38,646 bases of DNA from a bacterium (GTDB lineage: Bacteria; Oederibacteriota; PGYV01; Palsa-1178), in contig JBAXIL010000014.1 of NCBI GenBank assembly GCA_037138355.1, forward strand, positions 1-38,646. Direction: 5' to 3'. The notes beneath the pieces are model-generated. The model made no database searches and was not told where the DNA came from. It was given only the letters and a program-made list of their open reading frames with translations. A program made the translations under genes and the position numbers. Below, piece after piece: positions 4,686 to 16,691 of this stretch; within the stretch, counting starts at the first letter, position 1; each line of letters begins with the position of its first letter.

Positions 4686-6026
4686 TTAAACTACACCCTG
4701 ATCTATCATTGAATCGGCTACTTTAACAAAACCTGCTATATTCGCACCCATTACATAGTTAGTAGGGTCGCCGTATTCTGTGGCGGCACTTACGCACTGA
4801 TTATGGATTGCGATCATAATATTATGCAGCCTTGTATCAACTTCTTCGCGTGTCCACGAAAGTCTCATGGAGTTCTGCGACATTTCAAGACCTGATGTTG
4901 CAACTCCGCCAGCATTTGCGGCTTTACCTGGGCCATACATAATCTTTTTAGCCAAGTATTGTTCAATAGCTTCAGGAGTAGAAGGCATATTTGCGCCTTC
5001 ACTTATTAATTTGCAACCATTATCAAGTAATAGCTTTGCATTTTTACCGTCAATCTCATTCTGTGTGGCACTTGGGAATGCACAATCACAAGCAATTGCC
5101 CATGGTTTTGCCCCAGGTCTGTACTCACATTTATATTTATCTGCATATTCTTTAATACGACCGCGTTTTACATTTTTTAAATCAAGTACATATGCAAGCT
5201 TTTCTGCATTTATACCGTCTTTATCATATATAGTTCCTTCTGAATCAGAAAGTGAAACAGCCTTACCGCCGAGATGATTTATTTTCTCAACTGTATACTG
5301 TGCTACATTTCCTGAACCTGAAACTACACAAGTCTTTCCTTTAATGGAATCATTTTTTGTTTTAAGCATTTCCTGTGCAAAATATACTGCTCCATAACCA
5401 GTAGCTTCTGGGCGAATCAATGAGCCACCCCAATTTAACGCCTTACCTGTTAATATCCCTGTAAACTCATTACGAATTCTTTTATACTGCCCAAACATAA
5501 AACCAATCTCTCTTCCGCCTACACCAATATCTCCAGCTGGGACATCTGTGTCAGGTCCAATGTGGCGTTGAAGTTCAAGCATAAAAGACTGAATGAAACG
5601 CATAACTTCATTATCAGATTTACCTTTAGGGTCAAAATCAGATCCACCTTTTCCGCCACCCATAGGGAGTGTAGTAAGGGAATTTTTGAAAACCTGTTCA
5701 AATCCAAGGAATTTGAGAATTGAAGCATTTACTGATGGGTGAAGGCGAAGACCGCCTTTGTAAGGACCGATTGCGCTATTAAACTCAAATCTAAAACCAC
5801 GATTTACTTGAACTATATTCTTATCATCAACCCAAGGAACGCGAAAAATAATCTGTCTTTCTGGTTCAACTATACGCTCTAAAATACTTGCCTTCTCATA
5901 CTTTTTATTTCTGTCAACTACTGGGGCAAGTGACTCAAGCACTTCTGTTACCGCCTGCAAAAACTCAGGTTCATTTGCATTGCGTTTCTTAACTGTTTCA
6001 AGAACTTTATTGATATACTCCGACAT
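4686..6026 (-). CDS. gdhA: NADP-type glutamate dehydrogenase
   Basis: GPYKGGLRLHPSV, LPMGGGKGGSDFDPK, DVPAGDIGVGGREIG, RPEATGYG, VSGSGNVA, KAANAGGVATSGLEMSQN. Confidence 0.97.
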   Translation of the reverse strand: MSEYINKVLETVKKRNANEPEFLQAVTEVLESLAPVVDRNKKYEKASILERIVEPERQIIFRVPWVDDKNIVQVNRGFRFEFNSAIGPYKGGLRLHPSVNASILKFLGFEQVFKNSLTTLPMGGGKGGSDFDPKGKSDNEVMRFIQSFMLELQRHIGPDTDVPAGDIGVGGREIGFMFGQYKRIRNEFTGILTGKALNWGGSLIRPEATGYGAVYFAQEMLKTKNDSIKGKTCVVSGSGNVAQYTVEKINHLGGKAVSLSDSEGTIYDKDGINAEKLAYVLDLKNVKRGRIKEYADKYKCEYRPGAKPWAIACDCAFPSATQNEIDGKNAKLLLDNGCKLISEGANMPSTPEAIEQYLAKKIMYGPGKAANAGGVATSGLEMSQNSMRLSWTREEVDTRLHNIMIAIHNQCVSAATEYGDPTNYVMGANIAGFVKVADSMIDQGVV

Positions 6027-6064: not shown

Positions 6065-6144
6065 AAAACGACAAATCTGCCGCCAACACATCAATGTGTC
6101 TGCTATCGTGTATCTTCTGAACACATCAGCGTGCTCAGGCAGAT
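6065..6144 (-). promoter_or_regulatory. gdhA leader: ANTAR-type dual-hairpin RNA with basal helix and overlapping weak terminator
   Basis: Minus strand: CTGAGCAC-GCTGAT-GTGTTCAG and GCAGACAC-ATTGAT-GTGTTGGC, enclosed by ATCTGCC/GGCAGAT. Competing hairpin GGCGGCA-GATT-TGTCGTT followed by TT. Confidence 0.75.
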
Positions 6145-6202
6145 ATTGTTATAAACCTAAAGCACAGCGCTGTGCATTTAAGTTTGCCGACGAAAATTTT
6201 AT

Positions 6203-6979
6203 TTATTTTCCAATTTCCATAGTAAGTATTATTGCTTCCGCTACTTCTTTCATAGACTTTCTTGAATCCATTGATTTTTTATGTATTGATTTATATGCTA
6301 TGTCTTCTGACATTTTAAACTTGCTCATTAATATTCCTTTGGCCCTATCAATGAGTTTTCTTGTTTCAAGTGCTTCTTTCGCCATAACTGTTTCTTCTAA
6401 CAACTTGACATTTTCTATCCCAATGGCAGCTTGATTGGCCACAGACTGTAATATGCGTATTTCACTTTCACTAAAGACATGCTCTTGAGTGGTATAAATA
6501 TTAATTACCCCCATTACATTGTTTCGTAAAATCATCGGAACTGCCAGCATTGATTTAAGCCCTTCCTTAAGTGCTATTTCCTTAAATGCATAACCATTCT
6601 CTTTTGTAACATTTAAAACAGTTACTGGTTTTTTGTCAACAACTGCCCTTCCAGATATTGATTGCCCTACATTAATATTTGGTTTATTTCTATATTCAGT
6701 ACTTAGGCTTTGCGTTGCAATTGATTTAAGTTCCTGTTGATTTTTATCCAGCAACATTATAGAACAAATTTTAGACCCCATCATTTCGGCAGTAAGCGAA
6801 ACCACTATGTGCAATATTTCTTCTAAATATCTTCCAGAAACAATAGATTTACTTATTTCGGTTAAGGTTTCAATTTCTTTTTCTTTTTCCTGTATAATTA
6901 ATTTGAGTCTTGTTATTTCCGAGATACTTTTTGTAGGAACGATTTTTTTTCGTTTTTTTGCGATTTTCTTCTCAATCAT
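6203..6979 (-). CDS. GAF + ANTAR domain RNA-binding regulator
   Basis: N-terminal coiled coil, GAF-like core (CSIMLLD...GQSISGRAV...SMLAVPM...GVINIY...F...LQSVANQAAIGIEN) and C-terminal ANTAR (ALETRKLIDRAKGILM...SEDIAY...SMDSRKSMKEVAEAII). Start set at ATG 6979 after GGGGAG; the ORF track start is 7039. Confidence 0.92.
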   Translation of the reverse strand: MIEKKIAKKRKKIVPTKSISEITRLKLIIQEKEKEIETLTEISKSIVSGRYLEEILHIVVSLTAEMMGSKICSIMLLDKNQQELKSIATQSLSTEYRNKPNINVGQSISGRAVVDKKPVTVLNVTKENGYAFKEIALKEGLKSMLAVPMILRNNVMGVINIYTTQEHVFSESEIRILQSVANQAAIGIENVKLLEETVMAKEALETRKLIDRAKGILMSKFKMSEDIAYKSIHKKSMDSRKSMKEVAEAIILTMEIGK

Positions 6980-7062
6980 GAACGCTCCCCAAAAACAGAA
7001 TATAAAATGCGTGCTATTTCGGCCGACAGAAAAAGCCAAATCTTTATTTATATATCAAAAAG

Positions 7063-9416: not shown

Positions 9417-9448
9417 AAAAACGACTTACGACATCGGTGGCGTAAGCC
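9417..9448 (-). terminator. Intrinsic terminator/attenuator between gltD and nfnA, carrying an ANTAR-like ACCGAT hexaloop
   Basis: Minus strand GGCTTACGCC-ACCGAT-GTCGTAAGTC followed by GTTTTTAT. Confidence 0.75.
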
Positions 9449-9453
9449 CAACC

Positions 9454-10887
9454 CTACTTGCTTTTTGAAGCCAAATACTCAGTTATTCCGTCTGCAACTT
9501 TTCTACCCTCTGCAATTGCCCAAACTATTAATGAGGGACCTCTGGATACATCACCTGCAGCAAAAACACCTTTAACAGTTGTCTCAAGAGATTTTGCATC
9601 TCTAATAATATTTCCGCGCTCATCAAGCTTTACTGCTAATTTTTCAAGCAAACCTTCTTTTACAGGATTAGTAAAACCCATAGAAAAAATTACAAGATCA
9701 ACATCAATATCAAAAGCTGAACCTTCAACTTCTTTCATTGAAGGCCTGCTGCTTGATTCTGTTTTTACCCATTCAACTTTTGCGCATTTTACTTTTTTTA
9801 TAATTCCATTTTCACCAGCAAACTCTTTTGTTGTAACATTCCATTTTCTATCAGAACCCTCTTCATGACTTGAAGTGGTTTTAAAAACAAATGGATATTT
9901 TGGCCACGGCTGATCAATAGGCCTATCCCTTGATGGTTCAGGTAATATTTCTATCTGCATAACACATTTAGCGCCTTGCCTATTAGCCGTTCCGACACAA
10001 TCTGCCCCTGTATCACCGCCACCAATAACCAATACACTTTTACCTTTTGCATCAATAATTTCAGCTTCTATTTTATCTCCAGCTACTTTACGGTTGGATT
10101 GTGTGAGATAATCAACAGCTTGATAAATTCCCTTTAACTGCCTTCCCGGTATATTCATATCTCTTGGTACCCGACATCCAACAGCGACACAAACTGCATC
10201 ATATTCCTTTATTAATTCCTCAGTCGCGAAATTTATACCTACATTAATACAAGTTTTAAAACGAATTCCTTCTTCTTGCCAAACAGACAACCTTCGATCA
10301 AGAATAGATTTTTCAAGTTTGAAATCAGGTATGCCATATCTCATAAAACCACCGAGACGATCTTCTTTTTCAAAGACTGTAACAGTATGTCCAGCCATAT
10401 TCAAAAACGCAGCTGTTGAAAGACCTGCAGGGCCAGAACCAATAACCGCCACTTTTTTTCCAGTGCGAAGTATTCCTCTTTCTGGTTTTACATACCCTTC
10501 TTTAAAAGCCTTTTCTATTATTGCCAACTCGTTTTCTCTTATGGTCACGGGATAATCGTTTATCCCCAAAACACATGCCGATTCACATGGAGCAGGACAT
10601 ACGCGACCAGTAACTTCCGGAAGGACATTAGTAGCAGATAACAAAATGTATGCCCCTTCCCACCTATCACGATATGCATGATCATTCCACTCTGGCACAT
10701 AGTTACCAAGCGGACATGCCCAGTTACAAAAGTCAGTACCACAATCCATACATCTTGATGCTTGTTCTTTTGCCTTTTCATCCGTTCTCGGAACTGCCAC
10801 TGGCTTAAAATCTTTTACTCTATCGCAAACAGGCCTGTATGACATAGTTTCTCTCTTTACTTTTAAAAAACCAGTTGGATTTCCCAC
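9454..10887 (-). CDS. gltD: Glutamate synthase small (beta) subunit
   Basis: (M)GNPTGF start, RCMDCG...CPLGN, TGRVCPAPCE, GSGPAG, YGIPDFKLEK, IGGGDTGADC, SLIVWAIAEGR. Start set at GTG 10887, just after the gltB stop and GGAGG. Confidence 0.95.
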   Translation of the reverse strand: MGNPTGFLKVKRETMSYRPVCDRVKDFKPVAVPRTDEKAKEQASRCMDCGTDFCNWACPLGNYVPEWNDHAYRDRWEGAYILLSATNVLPEVTGRVCPAPCESACVLGINDYPVTIRENELAIIEKAFKEGYVKPERGILRTGKKVAVIGSGPAGLSTAAFLNMAGHTVTVFEKEDRLGGFMRYGIPDFKLEKSILDRRLSVWQEEGIRFKTCINVGINFATEELIKEYDAVCVAVGCRVPRDMNIPGRQLKGIYQAVDYLTQSNRKVAGDKIEAEIIDAKGKSVLVIGGGDTGADCVGTANRQGAKCVMQIEILPEPSRDRPIDQPWPKYPFVFKTTSSHEEGSDRKWNVTTKEFAGENGIIKKVKCAKVEWVKTESSSRPSMKEVEGSAFDIDVDLVIFSMGFTNPVKEGLLEKLAVKLDERGNIIRDAKSLETTVKGVFAAGDVSRGPSLIVWAIAEGRKVADGITEYLASKSK

Positions 10888-10888
10888 T

Positions 10889-13800
10889 TTAGGCCTCCGT
10901 CGTTTCAAGGGACTGCTGTTTTTTCGCAAGGTCCATTATTTGTTTATATTCAATTGGAATTACTTTAACAAAGTTTTTAATACTATAATCAAAATTTTCC
11001 AACAACTCTGAAGCTTTCCCGCTGGAAGTATATTTTATGTGATTTTCAAGCATTGTCTTTACAGTTCTAATATCATCTGCGTCTAATCCTGATAACTCCA
11101 CCATATCTTTATTACATTTGTCAGGAAATACTCTTGCTTCATCATACACATAAGCAATTCCGCCAGACATACCCGCTGCAAAGTTTCTTCCTGTCTGTCC
11201 TAACACCACTACTCTTCCACCTGTCATATATTCGCAACCATGGTCACCTAAACCTTCTACCACAGCATAAAGTCCAGAGTTTCTTATACAAAATCTTTCT
11301 CCAGCCATTCCACGAATATAGGCCTCGCCTGATATAGCTCCGTAAAAAGCCGTATTACCTATAATTACATTTTCTGTTGAATTATACATTGCTTTTTTAA
11401 ATGGATATATTGAAATACGGCCACCAGAAATTCCTTTTCCCACATAATCATTTGCAAGACCTTCAAGCTCAAAATTAATTCCTTTAGCAAGAAATGCACC
11501 AAAACTTTGTCCTGCAGTACCTTTAAACTTACAGTGTATTGTATTTTCAGGTAAATATTGTTCTCCGTATTTTTTGCATACCTCTCCTGATAACATAGCA
11601 CCACATGAACGATCTGTATTCTTAATAACTTTTTCTATTTTAACCACTATTTTATTATCTAATGCTGGTTTACTTTCCAATATCAGTTCCCGATCAAGAA
11701 CTTTATCTATTTCATGATCCTGCTTTGTTACACAGTATGTTGCTGTATCTGCCTTTACCTCTGGTTTATACAGAATCTTTGAGAAATCTATTCTCTTTGC
11801 CTTCCATGGAATTATTTCTTTATCTACCTCAAGCAAATCAACTCTACCGACCAAATCATTAACAGTTTTAATTCCAAGTTCAGCCATTATTTCTCTTAAA
11901 TCCTGTGCAATAAATTTCATAAAGTTTACTACATATTCTGGTTTGCCAGCAAAACGCTTTTGTAAAAGCTCGTCTTGCGTAGCAACACCTAAAGAACAAT
12001 TATTTAAATGACAATGTCTAAGCATTACACAACCTAAAGTAATAAGTACGATAGTTCCAAAACCAAACTCTTCCGCTCCTAAACATGCTGCCACAGCCAA
12101 ATCGCGGCCAGTTCTCATTTGTCCATCTGTTTGTAAACGAACTCTTCCCCGCAAATTATTCATGACAAGAGTTTGATGTGTTTCTGAAATGCCTAATTCC
12201 CACGGCAAACCTGCATGCATAATAGAGGTTTTAGGAGAAGCACCTGTTCCACCATCTCCACCTGATATCAGTATCATATCTGCATGAGCTTTGGCAACAC
12301 CTGCCGCAACTGTGCCTACTCCAGCTTCCGACACAAGTTTTACACTTATTCTGGCTCTTGGATTAGCATTCTTCAAATCAAAGATAAGCTGTTTTAAATC
12401 TTCAATAGAATAAATATCATGATGTGGTGGCGGTGATATCAAAGTAACTCCAGGGGTTGTATATCTCGTTCTGGCAATTATTTCGCTTACTTTATGACCA
12501 GGCAATTGTCCACCTTCTCCTGGTTTTGCACCTTGAGAAATTTTTATTTGTATTTCATCAGCATTAGTTAAATAATTTATATTTACACCAAACCTACCAG
12601 AAGCAACCTGCTTTATAGCACTGCGCGCAAGATCACCATTTGGATAAGGAGTAAATCTTATTGGATCCTCTCCGCCTTCTCCAGTATTTGATTTTCCACC
12701 AAGTCTATTCATGGCTATTGCCATTGCCTCATGAGCAGCGCCACTGATAGAACCAAAACTCATTGCTCCTACCACAAATCTTTTTACAATTGAATCAACA
12801 GACTCAACTTCAGATAACAAAACAGCTTTCTGTTTTTTAAACTTAAGCAAGCTTCTTAATGTCACAGGTTGATTTGCCTGATTATTTATAATTGCAGCAA
12901 ACTCCTTAAATCTTTTTTCGTCATTATTCCTTACGGCGTCCTGTATCGCAGCAATAGATTCAGGATTCCATAGATGTGTTTCCCCGTCTTTTTTCCACTG
13001 ATATAATCCACCAGTAGGCAATATCTTTTCTGCGGCACCTGTTTTACAGAATGATTCCGTATGAGTCATTATTACTTCTTTTGCTATTTCTTCAAAACCC
13101 ACTCCACCTATGCGTGAGACAGCACCAGTAAAACATCTGTCTATCACTTCATCGTGAATACCAAAGGCCTCAAAAATCTGCGCGCCTCTGTAGCTTTGTA
13201 ATGTGGATATACCCATTTTTGCCATAACTTTGCGTATTCCCTTATGGCAAGTTTTCCTGTAATTATAAACAGCCTTTTCATAACCGCAGTCTATTTCACC
13301 TTTATCTGTCATATATCTTATTGCTTCATACACCAAATAAGGATTGATAATATCAACTCCAAAACCGAGCAGAACACAAAAATGATGAACTTCTCTTGGT
13401 TCTCCTGATTCAAGTATTAATCCTACGCTTGTCCTTAAAGACTTTCTAACAAGCTCTTGATGAACAGCTCCTGAAGCCAAAAGTGAAGGTATCGCAGTAT
13501 ATTCATCACTAACGCCTTTATCACTTAAAATTATATATGAATAACCTTCTTTTATTGCCTTCACTGATTCTTCACATACCCTATCTAAAGCACTAACAAA
13601 ATCACCTGTATCTCCAGGCATAAGTAATAAAGAAATAGTTTTAGTTCTAAATCCATTTACTGCTATATGTTTTATTTTCTCAAGTTCTTCATTTGTAACA
13701 ATAGGCTCTCTCACCTGTAGCTTATGTGTATGCTGAGCTGTTTCTTCAAAAAGATTTTTCTGCGGACCTATAAAGCTCCGCAAGCTCATTACTATTTCCT

Positions 13801-15427
13801 CTCTTTCAGAATCGATAGGCGGATTTGTAACCTGAGCAAAGAGCTGCTTGAAATATGTAAAAAGTAATTTTGGTCTTATTGAAAGCACTGCGTGAGGCGT
13901 ATCATTACCCATAGAACCAAGCGGATCCTTAGCTTCTCCTGCCATAGGTTTCAAAATATCTTTAAGGTCTTCTCTTGTGTATCCAAAAACTTTAAGCTGA
14001 TCCATGAGTCCTTCGGGATTGGAAGGTTTCATATCAGGAACCGGAAGATCTTCTATGTATATTAGCTGTTCTTTTCTCCATTGCCTATATGGCGCGCGCC
14101 TTGATAAATCTTCTTTGACTTCCGAATCATTTATTATTCTGTTTTTTGCAGTGTCTATATAAAATATTTTGCCAGGCTCTAATCTTCCCGACTTATTTAT
14201 ATTGGAAGGAGGTATGTCAAGAACTCCAACCTCTGATGACATGACCACATAACCATCATTTGTTATTATATATCTTGCTGGTCTGAGTCCATTTCTATCA
14301 AGTACTGCCCCTATTCTTATCCCATCCGTAAAAGCAAGTGCCGCAGGACCGTCCCAAGGTTCCATGAAGCAAGCATGATACTTATAAAAACTTCTTATAG
14401 AATTAGGTAAAAGATCATTATGTTCCCAAGCTTCTGGGACTAACATCATCATAGCGTGCGGCATACTTCTTCCTGCTTTAGTTAGCATTTCAAAAGCATT
14501 ATCTATGGAAGCCGAATCACTTTGTTTTTCATCGCGAATAGCGGGTTTCATGTGTTTAGTATCAGTACCAAAAAGAGCACTATTGAAAAGTCCTTCTCTC
14601 GCTTTCATCCAGTTTAAGTTTCCTCTTAAAGTATTAATCTCGCCATTGTGAGCCAAATAACGGAATGGCTGAGCTAAATCCCATGTAGGAAAAGTGTTTG
14701 TAGAATAACGGGAATGAACAAGGCAAATTGCGCTTTTAATATCTTCGTCTTTTAAATCTGTAAAGAAATTAGCTATCTCTGCTGGCATCATAAGACCTTT
14801 ATATATGATAACTCTGCTTGATAAATTAGTAACATAAAATTGTGCTTTTTGTTTTAGATTAGAATCTCTTACAACATTTTCAACTTTTTTTCTTATTATA
14901 TAAAGCGCGCGTTCAAAAGCTTCTCTATCATTTATATTCTCTGCTTTCTTTATAAAAAGGTGTTCAAACCTTGGCTCGCTTGCCCTTGCTACAGGACCTA
15001 TTACATTATTATCAACTGGCACTTCTCTCCAACCCAAAAGAGTTTGTCCTTGTTCATCAATCGCTTTTTTTATTTCATTTTTTACTACCTTGCATTCATT
15101 TTCATCTTGTGGTAAAAAAACTAAACCTATACCATATTCACCTTCATCAGGAAGGTTTATGCCAATATTTTTTGATACCTTTATAAAAAAATCATGTGGA
15201 ATTTGTATAAGAATCCCCGCTCCATCACCGGTTTTTGAATCAGCACCAGTTGCCCCACGATGAGTCATGCGCTCAAGTATCTGCATGCCATCAAGAACGA
15301 GCTTATTTGTCTTATCGCCTTTTATGTTTGCGATAAAACCTACACCACAGGAATCTTTTTCAAATGAAGGATCATATAACCCTTTTTTCATTGGCATATA
15401 ACCTTCCATAGAGCTTACAGTTTCCAT
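10889..15427 (-). CDS. gltB: Glutamate synthase large (alpha) subunit
   Basis: EKDSCGVGF (catalytic Cys), HSRYSTNTFP, EPWDGPA, KQLFAQVTNPPID, IKQVASGRFGV, QGAKPGEGGQLPG, [3Fe-4S] motif CVMLRHCHLNNC, C-terminal GXGXG repeats. Confidence 0.98.
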   Translation of the reverse strand: METVSSMEGYMPMKKGLYDPSFEKDSCGVGFIANIKGDKTNKLVLDGMQILERMTHRGATGADSKTGDGAGILIQIPHDFFIKVSKNIGINLPDEGEYGIGLVFLPQDENECKVVKNEIKKAIDEQGQTLLGWREVPVDNNVIGPVARASEPRFEHLFIKKAENINDREAFERALYIIRKKVENVVRDSNLKQKAQFYVTNLSSRVIIYKGLMMPAEIANFFTDLKDEDIKSAICLVHSRYSTNTFPTWDLAQPFRYLAHNGEINTLRGNLNWMKAREGLFNSALFGTDTKHMKPAIRDEKQSDSASIDNAFEMLTKAGRSMPHAMMMLVPEAWEHNDLLPNSIRSFYKYHACFMEPWDGPAALAFTDGIRIGAVLDRNGLRPARYIITNDGYVVMSSEVGVLDIPPSNINKSGRLEPGKIFYIDTAKNRIINDSEVKEDLSRRAPYRQWRKEQLIYIEDLPVPDMKPSNPEGLMDQLKVFGYTREDLKDILKPMAGEAKDPLGSMGNDTPHAVLSIRPKLLFTYFKQLFAQVTNPPIDSEREEIVMSLRSFIGPQKNLFEETAQHTHKLQVREPIVTNEELEKIKHIAVNGFRTKTISLLLMPGDTGDFVSALDRVCEESVKAIKEGYSYIILSDKGVSDEYTAIPSLLASGAVHQELVRKSLRTSVGLILESGEPREVHHFCVLLGFGVDIINPYLVYEAIRYMTDKGEIDCGYEKAVYNYRKTCHKGIRKVMAKMGISTLQSYRGAQIFEAFGIHDEVIDRCFTGAVSRIGGVGFEEIAKEVIMTHTESFCKTGAAEKILPTGGLYQWKKDGETHLWNPESIAAIQDAVRNNDEKRFKEFAAIINNQANQPVTLRSLLKFKKQKAVLLSEVESVDSIVKRFVVGAMSFGSISGAAHEAMAIAMNRLGGKSNTGEGGEDPIRFTPYPNGDLARSAIKQVASGRFGVNINYLTNADEIQIKISQGAKPGEGGQLPGHKVSEIIARTRYTTPGVTLISPPPHHDIYSIEDLKQLIFDLKNANPRARISVKLVSEAGVGTVAAGVAKAHADMILISGGDGGTGASPKTSIMHAGLPWELGISETHQTLVMNNLRGRVRLQTDGQMRTGRDLAVAACLGAEEFGFGTIVLITLGCVMLRHCHLNNCSLGVATQDELLQKRFAGKPEYVVNFMKFIAQDLREIMAELGIKTVNDLVGRVDLLEVDKEIIPWKAKRIDFSKILYKPEVKADTATYCVTKQDHEIDKVLDRELILESKPALDNKIVVKIEKVIKNTDRSCGAMLSGEVCKKYGEQYLPENTIHCKFKGTAGQSFGAFLAKGINFELEGLANDYVGKGISGGRISIYPFKKAMYNSTENVIIGNTAFYGAISGEAYIRGMAGERFCIRNSGLYAVVEGLGDHGCEYMTGGRVVVLGQTGRNFAAGMSGGIAYVYDEARVFPDKCNKDMVELSGLDADDIRTVKTMLENHIKYTSSGKASELLENFDYSIKNFVKVIPIEYKQIMDLAKKQQSLETTEA

Positions 15428-15518
15428 ACAAAACTCCTTTTATATTATTAATTTTCAAATTAAGTTTTAAGCTTTATAAATTTTTAGCCAAATAACAATC
15501 TATCTATAGGCATACTTA

Positions 15519-15592
15519 TAGCAACTATACAACCTTGAGATTTGTCGCATCGTAGCGACATATTAGGCAGGCATCGACGCCAACTGTTGCTA
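15519..15592 (-). promoter_or_regulatory. gltB leader: ANTAR-type dual-hairpin RNA with basal helix
   Basis: Minus strand: GGC-GTCGAT-GCC, 9-nt linker, TGTCGC-TACGAT-GCGACA, enclosed by TAGCAAC/GTTGCTA, immediately after the promoter. Confidence 0.75.
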
Positions 15593-15596
15593 AATA

Positions 15597-15625
15597 ACTA
15601 TACAAAATATGTGATTAAAAGTCAA
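15597..15625 (-). promoter_or_regulatory. Sigma70-type promoter of the gltB operon
   Basis: TTGACT-17 nt-TATAGT on the minus strand. Confidence 0.75.
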
Positions 15626-15670
15626 ACAGAAAACTAAAAGTACGATTATAAGATATGCTATATTTAATTG

Positions 15671-16162
15671 CTATTTTTGTTCTGTTGGCTTGTTTATTTT
15701 ACCTGAAAGTTTCGCCTTTAATATTGTATGCATTTCACCTTCATTTTTTACAATATTATCCAGAACACCGTTGATAAAACTACCTGATTTTTCGTCCCCA
15801 AACCTTTTAGCAAGTTCGATGGCTTCGTTTATCGTAACTTTATATGGTATGTCTTCACGGAAAACCAACTCCGCTACTCCAATGCGCAGTATATTTCTAT
15901 CTATAGATAAAATCCTGTCGTATTTCCAGTTTTTCAGATATTTTGGAATTATCTCATCTATTTCCTTCATATGTTCCATAACATCTTTTATTAAGTCTTT
16001 GGAAAACTCTTTCGATTTATCTAAAAACTTTTCCTCTTGTCCTAAATTCTGTGTTGAGTAAGTATCAATGAACTCGTTTATCTCATCCATTGGCTTTTCT
16101 GCAATCTCAATCTGATACAAACTCTGAAGAGCAATAATTCTTCCAGCACGCCTTATTCCCAT
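15671..16162 (-). CDS. nusB: Transcription antitermination factor NusB
   Basis: [34 protein letters not shown]...FINGVLD. Follows ribH. Confidence 0.95.
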
Positions 16163-16226
16163 GTTATCCTTTCAAGAAAACAATTATAATTTAAATTTTT
16201 TGAAATACTACAATATACAAATTTTA

Positions 16227-16691
16227 TTACTTAATTTGATCTATCAGATCTGTCATTTCAAGCGTTGACAAAGCCGAATCCCAACCTTTGTTTCCTGCTT
16301 TTACCCCTGCTCTGTCTTTTGCCTGTTCTGCTGTGTCTGCAGTTATAATACCAAATCCTATAGGCACGCCTGTTGCCATGCTCTGTGAAGCGATTCCTTT
16401 AGTCACTTCTGAGGCAATAAAATCAAAATGCGGTGTCTCACCACGAATAATAACACCAAGTGCTATCATACCTGTATATTTCTTCTTTTTAAGTATGTTT
16501 GACAAAGCAGTAGGTATTTCAAAAGAACCTGGTACCCAATAAACATCTATATTTGATTCTACAACCTGATGTCTAAGCAAGCAATCTATCGCTCCAGCAA
16601 GCAGGTTTTTTCCTATTGCTTCATTGAATCTTGAAATTACTATACCAAACTTCTTACCCTTGCCTATCAATTGTCCTTTAATTTCCTTCAT
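16227..16691 (-). CDS. ribH: 6,7-dimethyl-8-ribityllumazine synthase
   Basis: SRFN, VPGSFEIP, GVIIRGETPHFD, RAGVKAGNKG. Confidence 0.97.
   Translation of the reverse strand: MKEIKGQLIGKGKKFGIVISRFNEAIGKNLLAGAIDCLLRHQVVESNIDVYWVPGSFEIPTALSNILKKKKYTGMIALGVIIRGETPHFDFIASEVTKGIASQSMATGVPIGFGIITADTAEQAKDRAGVKAGNKGWDSALSTLEMTDLIDQIK

Follow-up and report, generated by a model that had tools for sequence, protein, structure and literature searches.

The messenger RNA of gltB, the gene for the large subunit of glutamate synthase, is predicted to open with two adjacent hexaloop hairpins of the ANTAR-target type in an uncultured lake bacterium of the Oederibacteriota (GTDB lineage PGYV01; Palsa-1178). 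This leader occupies positions 15428-15590 on the minus strand of contig JBAXIL010000014.1 (assembly GCA_037138355.1), whose 38,646 nucleotides (nt) are referred to here as the window; the genome comprises 1.66 Mb and is 94% complete. The hairpin module is real, it keeps its place in the ANTAR-bearing members of the family, it accompanies ANTAR-bearing genomes across the order, and no terminator follows it. We favour, with a rough probability of 0.4, the reading that this 5' module is a non-canonical ANTAR target that acts through protein occupancy and not through antitermination.

Transcription of gltB is expected to begin at a sigma-70-type promoter, TTGACT-17-TATAGT (15597-15625; 10 of 12 matches in a consensus scan), which predicts a start near 15590 and an untranslated leader of 163 nt. 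The predicted 5' end of the mRNA carries AGCAAC (15586-15591), the 5' strand of a putative basal helix designated P0. It is followed by hairpin P1 (15570-15581; GGC/GUCGAU/GCC), by the conserved 3' flank of P1, UGCCU (15565-15569; UNCCU in relatives), and, across a linker of 9 nt, by hairpin P2 (15543-15560; UGUCGC/UACGAU/GCGACA), whose stem has 6 base pairs. A single-stranded motif conserved in relatives, AAUCUCAA, lies at 15535-15542, and GUUGCU (15520-15525), the 3' strand of P0, would close the junction. An A+U-rich spacer (15442-15519) leads to the ribosome-binding sequence GGAG (15437-15434) and the ATG of gltB (15427-15425), with 105 nt between the end of P2 and GGAG. Every element for which a sequence-only reading had given coordinates stands exactly there, and the AU-rich stretch that it had put at about 80 nt measures 78 nt, with 82% A+U. 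Both loops, GUCGAU in P1 and UACGAU in P2, are hexaloops with G at position 4 (G4), as in ANTAR targets.

For the 78-nt 5' domain the predicted fold is a three-way junction of -22.4 kcal/mol (z -2.14), a value equalled by 6 of 200 shuffled sequences. The P0 duplex itself (15591-15586 with 15525-15520) amounts to -8.3 kcal/mol, which 3.1% of 1000 shuffles reach, and in the full leader the pair probability is 0.73 for P1 and about 1.0 for P2. Pairs of strong G4-hexaloop hairpins number 471 in the genome, about one per 7 kb of strand, against 354-407 in three shuffled versions, and the chance of finding such a pair in any single 130-nt leader is roughly 2%. The DNA sequencing runs contain no variants within the leader. 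Rfam models, that of the glutamine riboswitch among them, gave no match across the window at gathering thresholds, and the interval 15400-15660 returned four chance-level matches only (E 0.98 to 9.2).

The leader lacks a recognisable expression platform. A consensus scan of 14800-16400 found no terminator-like site, the region after P2 folds like its shuffles (-9.5 kcal/mol versus -9.6 on average, z 0.05), the local hairpin downstream of P2 reaches only -2.1 kcal/mol, and no structure competes with P2. The ribosome-binding site is likewise free: constraint folding with P1 and P2 forced leaves its accessibility unchanged (0.63 versus 0.60), as it does in the related leaders of G004 and G003. 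Both absences, of an intrinsic terminator and of a stem sequestering the ribosome-binding site, had been proposed by the sequence-only reading and are borne out. Since there is neither a terminator nor a structure hiding the ribosome-binding site, the output of gltB cannot be canonical antitermination; and because a competing fold, a terminator and a nearby ribosome-binding site are all missing, the hairpin module is not a switch. The same consensus scan detected no terminator-like site after the hairpins in 8 of 8 gltB leaders of relatives, 7 of which have upstream a promoter equivalent to that of gltB. By eye and by folding, the gltB leader of G016 has a strong long-loop terminator and that of G008 a small one. 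The terminator-less design is common in the gltB leaders of this order, not universal.

Canonical antitermination could still operate through a weak or unusual terminator, for which the candidate is an A+U-rich hairpin at about 15521-15503 followed by UUGUUAUUU at 15498-15490. An A-rich ACAAA precedes this region and a U-rich stretch follows it, G003 has a small hairpin and then AUUUUGG at the equivalent place, and two more distant orthologous systems, Syntrophorhabdus L120 and Elusimicrobia L160, are canonical, with P2 overlapping the terminator. The candidate hairpin, however, does not overlap P2, its stability and the z value of its region are the unremarkable ones given above, the scan finds nothing here or in the eight relatives, and the genuine terminators in the window consist of G+C-rich stems followed by a U run. 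We therefore regard a hidden terminator as improbable.

Slightly less probable again is translational control at long range, in which the CCU-containing flank of P1 would pair with the ribosome-binding site and a bound protein would alter that pairing. Good pairing between the UGCCU flank and the site is predicted in G004 (-8.2 kcal/mol, reached by 2.8% of shuffles), where it also appears in the full-leader fold, and in G017 (-6.7 kcal/mol, 3.2%). It is weak in the genome studied here (-4.4 kcal/mol, 18%) and in G003 (-4.0 kcal/mol, 31%), forcing P1 and P2 leaves the accessibility of the ribosome-binding site unchanged in 3 of 3 leaders, and P2 ends well before GGAG. The hairpins also differ from an actinobacterial-type ANTAR repressor site in that they overlap neither the ribosome-binding site nor the start codon.

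Attenuation by Rho within the untranslated leader, under the influence of a bound protein, had also been put forward, and the length of the leader together with the presence of a rho gene would allow it. Rho loading sites are C-rich and G-poor. In the spacer at 15519-15442, by contrast, G (11.5%) outnumbers C (6.4%) and the dinucleotide YC occurs once across the 78 nt, a composition unlike that of a loading region, which makes this proposal very unlikely. Genes for RNase E/G and RNase Y are present in the genome, in which no RNase J gene was found.

The conservation of the leader was followed in a family of 8 species, with 7 gltB leaders in the alignment, and in upstream gltB regions taken from 28 relatives. 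Outside the family its DNA cannot be aligned; a search with the leader DNA against 40 relatives gave A+T-rich chance matches only. Within it, the -35 element TTGAC, the -10-region TGTATA and P1 (GGC-NNNGA-N-G-C) are invariant in the seven leaders, and the remainder diverges; no gltB match was found in the eighth species, G002. The two other ANTAR-bearing members of the family, G004 and G003, have both hairpins at the same places, with the P1/P2 loops AAUGAU/UUAGAG and AAAGAU/UUUGAU, respectively, the P1 loops starting with A. Their P2 stems read CCGC/GCGG in G004 and CAGC/GCUG in G003, so that two of the four stem positions common to the three leaders change by compensation. In the RNAalifold analysis of the three leaders MAFFT misaligned P2 of G003, and its pair counts were not used for P2.

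The GAF-ANTAR gene encoding the putative regulator and gdhA are present together, and adjacent, in G000, G003 and G004, and are absent together from G001, G002 and G005-G007. These five genomes, 86-98% complete, contain no ANTAR domain and no gene of the Glu/Leu/Phe/Val dehydrogenase family. The two other species of the genus to which the window belongs lack both genes, and their genomes are about twice as large (2.7-3.4 Mb versus 1.66 Mb). In the ANTAR-less members the second hairpin is not a hexaloop (G001, G005, G006 and G007), and the P1 stem is broken in G006.

Smaller elements of the leader were also traced. UAGCAA, at the 5' end, is conserved even where relatives lack a complementary 3' strand, which suggests that it may serve transcription initiation and not pairing. 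An AAUC(U/C)C-like motif occupies the place of AAUCUCAA in this genome, in G004 and in three g4 genomes, and in looser form in G001 and G003, with or without ANTAR. Loop-loop kissing and a pseudoknot joining the loop of P2 to the AAUCUCAA flank were considered and rejected, as by eye they offered at most 3-4 pairs or were unconserved across G004 and G003; a mini reading frame starting in P1, AUG-CCU-GCC-UAA, was set aside by the same examination. A pattern scan of metagenomes for the promoter and 5' end returned 28 matches, of which 4 are real leaders: the sequence itself and 3 that repeat the G006 or G005 types exactly, so that the diversity of known leaders was not widened.

Beyond the family, paired hexaloops keep company with the regulator. 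Two strong G4 hexaloops within 200 nt upstream of gltB occur as a pair in 6 of 17 genomes with ANTAR and in none of 10 without it, a count from which one 81-nt leader was dropped and in which one leader longer than 200 nt is under-counted. A covariance model, R1, built from 14 double-hexaloop elements, all of relatives and none from this genome, found sense-strand matches inside the gltB leader at 8 of 11 ANTAR-bearing and 0 of 7 ANTAR-less loci (18 loci); no match is strong by itself (E 0.003 to 0.5), two of the seed sequences are close kin of the one in G013, and the genomes compared are related to one another, so that the counts overstate independence. In G018, which has no gdhA, a GltS-like gene and gltB lie directly downstream of the ANTAR gene, and double hexaloops of the A1/G4 type (A as first and G as fourth base of the loop) stand before both. 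Beside other orthologues, the genes that follow double hexaloops encode ammonium transporters (5 cases), GltS-like proteins, a P-II fusion, NadE, a gltD-like protein and, in addition, the regulator. This set matches a published theme, in which ANTAR substrates cluster on nitrogen genes and include predictions upstream of genes for glutamate synthase (Ramesh et al. 2012, PMC3369931). The motif alone cannot define a regulon, since real and shuffled top scores overlap in a genome-wide descriptor scan. A genome-wide R1 search scored 150 of 632 candidates and did not return the gdhA leader among them.

The limits just attached to the R1 matches are joined by several observations that weigh against the favoured reading. 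A at loop position 1 is absent from both hairpins, P1 having G and P2 having U there, and this base was reported to be important by Ramesh et al. 2012 (PMC3369931). The gltB element falls outside the R1 model, with a partial sense-strand score of 7.9 bits (E 3.6). The P0 helix has a probability near 0 when the full leader is folded with 12 nt of coding sequence, and it is poorly conserved for gltB: 19% of shuffles do as well as the helix of G004, and none was found in four other leaders tested. Finally, G001, G005 and G007, which have neither ANTAR nor gdhA, retain P1 with G4 and A5 in its loop before gltB. It follows from this distribution that P1 has, or had, an ANTAR-independent role, or that it is decaying slowly after the joint loss of ANTAR and gdhA.

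An ANTAR-independent element is accordingly the alternative to be taken most seriously, unlikely as we hold it to be. The hairpins would then form a constitutive structured 5' end that serves stabilisation or processing, or would be bound by another factor, and the ANTAR resemblance would be a relic or a coincidence. Such a role would explain why P1 and the promoter are invariant in seven family members, four of them without ANTAR or gdhA, why the hairpins fold unaided, why neither loop has A1 and no significant R1 match lies on the sense strand, and why the AAUCYC motif after P2 is conserved regardless of ANTAR. It does not account for the second G4 hexaloop hairpin, which is confined to ANTAR-bearing genomes; the non-hexaloop second hairpins of ANTAR-less genomes and the broken P1 of G006 resemble decay after loss of the protein, and hairpins of the GGC-NNNGAU-GCC type recur in gdhA leaders, for example that of G003. 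As to the missing A1, the structural work of Walshe et al. 2022 (PMC8934654) shows that EutV makes its sole base-specific contact with G4 and that one hexaloop is its minimal site; one hexaloop being sufficient and G4 being the only base read, binding is plausible despite the absence of A1.

The orientation of the element also deserves comment. On the opposite (plus) strand R1 scores 14.6 bits (E 0.072), and in the genome-wide descriptor scan the plus strand ranks 13th against 109th for the sense strand. The functional RNA could thus be antisense to the gltB leader, in which case both loops would have A1 and G4. The higher score arises, however, because sense loops of the form NNCGAU automatically read AUCGNN on the other strand. 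Moreover, the A1/G4 loops of relatives and their R1 matches lie on the gltB sense strand, for which reason the sense orientation was kept, and the plus strand offers only weak promoter-like sites nearby (9 of 12 matches) and no gene downstream. Among the explanations considered, an antisense RNA is the one we find hardest to credit.

The putative partner of the module is encoded in the same cluster. The GAF-ANTAR gene (6203-7039, minus strand) specifies a protein of 278 amino acids, has its own promoter (7091-7063, 11 of 12 matches), lies 8.4 kb downstream of the gltB leader and adjoins gdhA. In a genome-wide domain search, its ANTAR domain (6227-6379, minus strand; 75.9 bits) was the single match. 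Among solved structures, the ANTAR part matches chains of Rv1626, NasR and EutV, and the GAF part matches the GAF domain of phosphoenolpyruvate-protein phosphotransferase, the nitrogen-PTS (phosphotransferase system) enzyme I (E 7e-12), as well as NifA-like regulators. The GAF match would fit a glutamine or 2-oxoglutarate signal. The closest named relatives of the protein come from metagenome-assembled genomes labelled candidate division FCPU426, Goldiibacteriota and Firestonebacteria. A locus search with the single protein as query gave no matches, and an alignment query succeeded in retrieving orthologues of 50-60% identity in Syntrophorhabdia, Elusimicrobiota, Omnitrophota and Nitrospirota. 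According to Ramesh et al. 2012 (PMC3369931), no GAF-ANTAR protein had been characterised as of that year, and a full-text literature search for the term, supplements not being covered, did not find a characterised example.

A sister element precedes gdhA, at 6070-6149 on the minus strand, where a basal helix encloses two hexaloop hairpins. The helix pairs AUCUGCC (6144-6138) with GGCAGAU (6081-6075), is extended by AACA/UUGU, and contains hairpins at 6137-6118 and 6100-6085 with the loops GCUGAU and AUUGAU. This leader folds at -28.2 kcal/mol (z -2.62), none of 200 shuffles being as good, and it is the best match of R1 in the window (17.5 bits, E 0.013). An enclosing helix of differing sequence was found in 6 of 8 gdhA leaders from relatives, each reached by 0.9-5.9% of 1000 shuffles, and this recurrence makes the three-way junction a conserved feature for gdhA. 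Most gdhA leaders of relatives have no canonical terminator either. The sequence-only reading had supposed that the output at gltB may differ from that at gdhA, one protein thereby controlling the two enzymes reciprocally; with the gdhA leaders of this lineage also forming closed junctions, mostly without a canonical terminator, that contrast is weaker than assumed. The comparative pattern fits a single protein coordinating gltB and gdhA, and the direction of control is not given by the pattern.

Two observations concern the sequence immediately upstream of the gdhA junction. The terminator after the GAF-ANTAR gene (6162-6175, minus strand) consists of GCAC, the loop AGCGCU, GUGC and then UUUAGGUUU; its loop is an A1/G4 hexaloop and is kept in G004 (L033/L091). 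Overlapping this terminator is a weak promoter-like sequence, TGCACA-17-TATAAC, recognised by eye only, from which the gdhA junction may also start at the 5' end of its transcript.

With a second target in the same cluster, the gltB module could in principle work as a decoy: folded sites on an abundant gltB mRNA would titrate the GAF-ANTAR protein from the gdhA leader, in the manner of EutX/Rli55, and would couple both pathways. The sites fold without protein, there is no cis expression platform, the promoter is strong, and the genome has a single ANTAR protein with one clear other target. Sequestration of EutV by EutX is mentioned in PMC8934654. On the other hand, the gdhA leader itself lacks a clear terminator at which the protein would act, and the conservation of P1 without ANTAR would be left unexplained. 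Titration of this kind seems to us doubtful, a little less so than a hidden terminator.

According to the favoured reading, then, the first 72 nt of the gltB mRNA would form a promoter-proximal module in which P1 and P2 are stably folded and a short basal helix probably closes the junction. The module would descend from the double-hexaloop gltB leaders of ANTAR-bearing relatives and most likely continues to be bound by the single GAF-ANTAR protein of the genome, whose GAF domain probably senses nitrogen status. As the hairpins are expected to form with or without the protein, the output would depend on whether protein occupies the structured 5' end. Most probably it would act on 5'-end-dependent decay of the untranslated leader, which is long and A+U-rich, and hence on the amount of gltBD mRNA. 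A structural parallel is offered by stabilising stem-loops of the ompA 5' untranslated region type, in which a base-paired 5' end is likewise followed by an A+U-rich untranslated region. No protein partner is known for ompA-type stem-loops, and for the gltB mRNA stabilisation is presumed. The gltB leader further shares with the ompA-type setting an RNase E/G-type enzyme, encoded in the genome.

Compared with the ANTAR dual-hexaloop antiterminators (EutV/eut, NasR/nasF and AmiR/amiE; Ramesh et al. 2012, PMC3369931; Walshe et al. 2022, PMC8934654), the gltB leader has in common two adjacent G4-hexaloop hairpins with a 9-nt linker, a position in the 5' leader of a nitrogen-metabolism operon, and an ANTAR protein encoded in the same cluster. 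Unlike them, it has no terminator at or after P2 and no A1; its hairpins are stable without protein and occupy the extreme 5' end, where a basal helix may close them, and its putative regulator carries a GAF sensor. EutX is a separate small RNA, whereas the gltB sites head a long mRNA. The EutX/Rli55 decoy is nevertheless similar in presenting hexaloop sites without a cis terminator function (PMC8934654). The predicted glutamate synthase ANTAR substrates of Desulfotomaculum reducens (Ramesh et al. 2012) belong to the same target class and motif type, and both cases are computational predictions; those substrates were screened for an overlapping intrinsic terminator, whereas the gltB leader has none and comes from a different, uncultured phylum. 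In the Omnitrophica loci L154 and L155 the hexaloop hairpins overlap terminators, as seen in part, whereas here and in most leaders of the order there is no overlap. Mycobacterial ANTAR target RNAs (PMC12591593) are likewise controlled without a terminator and inhibit translation, with sites overlapping the ribosome-binding site or start codon; in the gltB leader, in contrast, P2 is remote from GGAG and no folding couples the two. The gltB leader is thus of a known kind, an ANTAR hexaloop leader on a nitrogen gene, minus A1 and the overlapping terminator; its additions are the placement at the 5' terminus and, possibly, the closing of the junction.

Documented ANTAR read-outs are two, the stabilisation of an antiterminator and the blocking of a ribosome-binding site, and regulators of this type are widespread in nitrogen control. 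If the GAF-ANTAR protein binds the gltB and gdhA leaders, a further mechanism exists, since ANTAR-type hexaloops at strong promoters offer neither of these read-outs here or in the majority of the order's gltB and gdhA leaders. A broader proposal would be a third ANTAR mode, in which GAF-ANTAR proteins of this candidate-phylum lineage act on terminator-less closed hexaloop junctions at the 5' ends of gltB and gdhA mRNAs, so that one nitrogen-sensing protein sets the balance between glutamate dehydrogenase and glutamate synthase by its occupancy of mRNA 5' ends, through stability or titration, with neither antitermination nor occlusion of the ribosome-binding site. We consider this generalisation rather unlikely, more so than an ANTAR-independent role for the hairpins. 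In that event gltB with gdhA would constitute a simple two-target system suited to defining the signal and mode of the large GAF-ANTAR class. Should the protein not bind, the conserved P1 would instead point to a so far undescribed role of the glutamate synthase 5' leader in this uncultured phylum.

The remaining features of the window concern its gene neighbourhood. The window contains a nitrogen cluster comprising a type III glutamine synthetase (glnN), a gene without a Pfam match, amtB, glnB, gltBD and gdhA. The gltB gene (10889-15427, minus strand) has GATase_2, Glu_syn_central, Glu_synthase and GXGXG domains, and gltD (9454-10929, minus strand) lies downstream of it; the minus-strand order is gltB, gltD, two NfnAB-like genes, the GAF-ANTAR gene and gdhA (4686-6026). 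Between nusB and gltB there is a gap of 243 nt on the minus strand, which contains the gltB promoter and leader. The one RNA run gave a single 254-nt contig, on nusB (15741-15994), with no coverage of the gltB leader.

In other gltB leaders of roughly 200 nt (L077, L078 and L079, from G017, G013 and G009), four to five AGAUGUU-like copies spaced about 13 nt apart follow the hexaloop hairpins; the array could provide binding sites for an RNA-binding protein. In the gap between gltD and the NfnA-like gene (9417-9448, minus strand), a hairpin made of GGCUUACGCC, the loop ACCGAU and GUCGUAAGUC is followed by GUUUUU and begins 5 nt past the gltD stop. With -10.6 kcal/mol and z -2.47 it is an intrinsic terminator with an ANTAR-type A1/G4 hexaloop, one that the consensus scan had missed. 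On the plus strand, the first frame of the amtB-glnB operon (2071-2769) encodes 232 amino acids with a signal-peptide-like N-terminus and has no Pfam match at E 1e-5. It is preceded at 2004-2019 by a sigma-54-type promoter-like sequence (TGGCAC, 5 bases, ATGCT), identified by eye only; given this site, the amtB-glnB operon would have a regulator other than that of gltB and gdhA.

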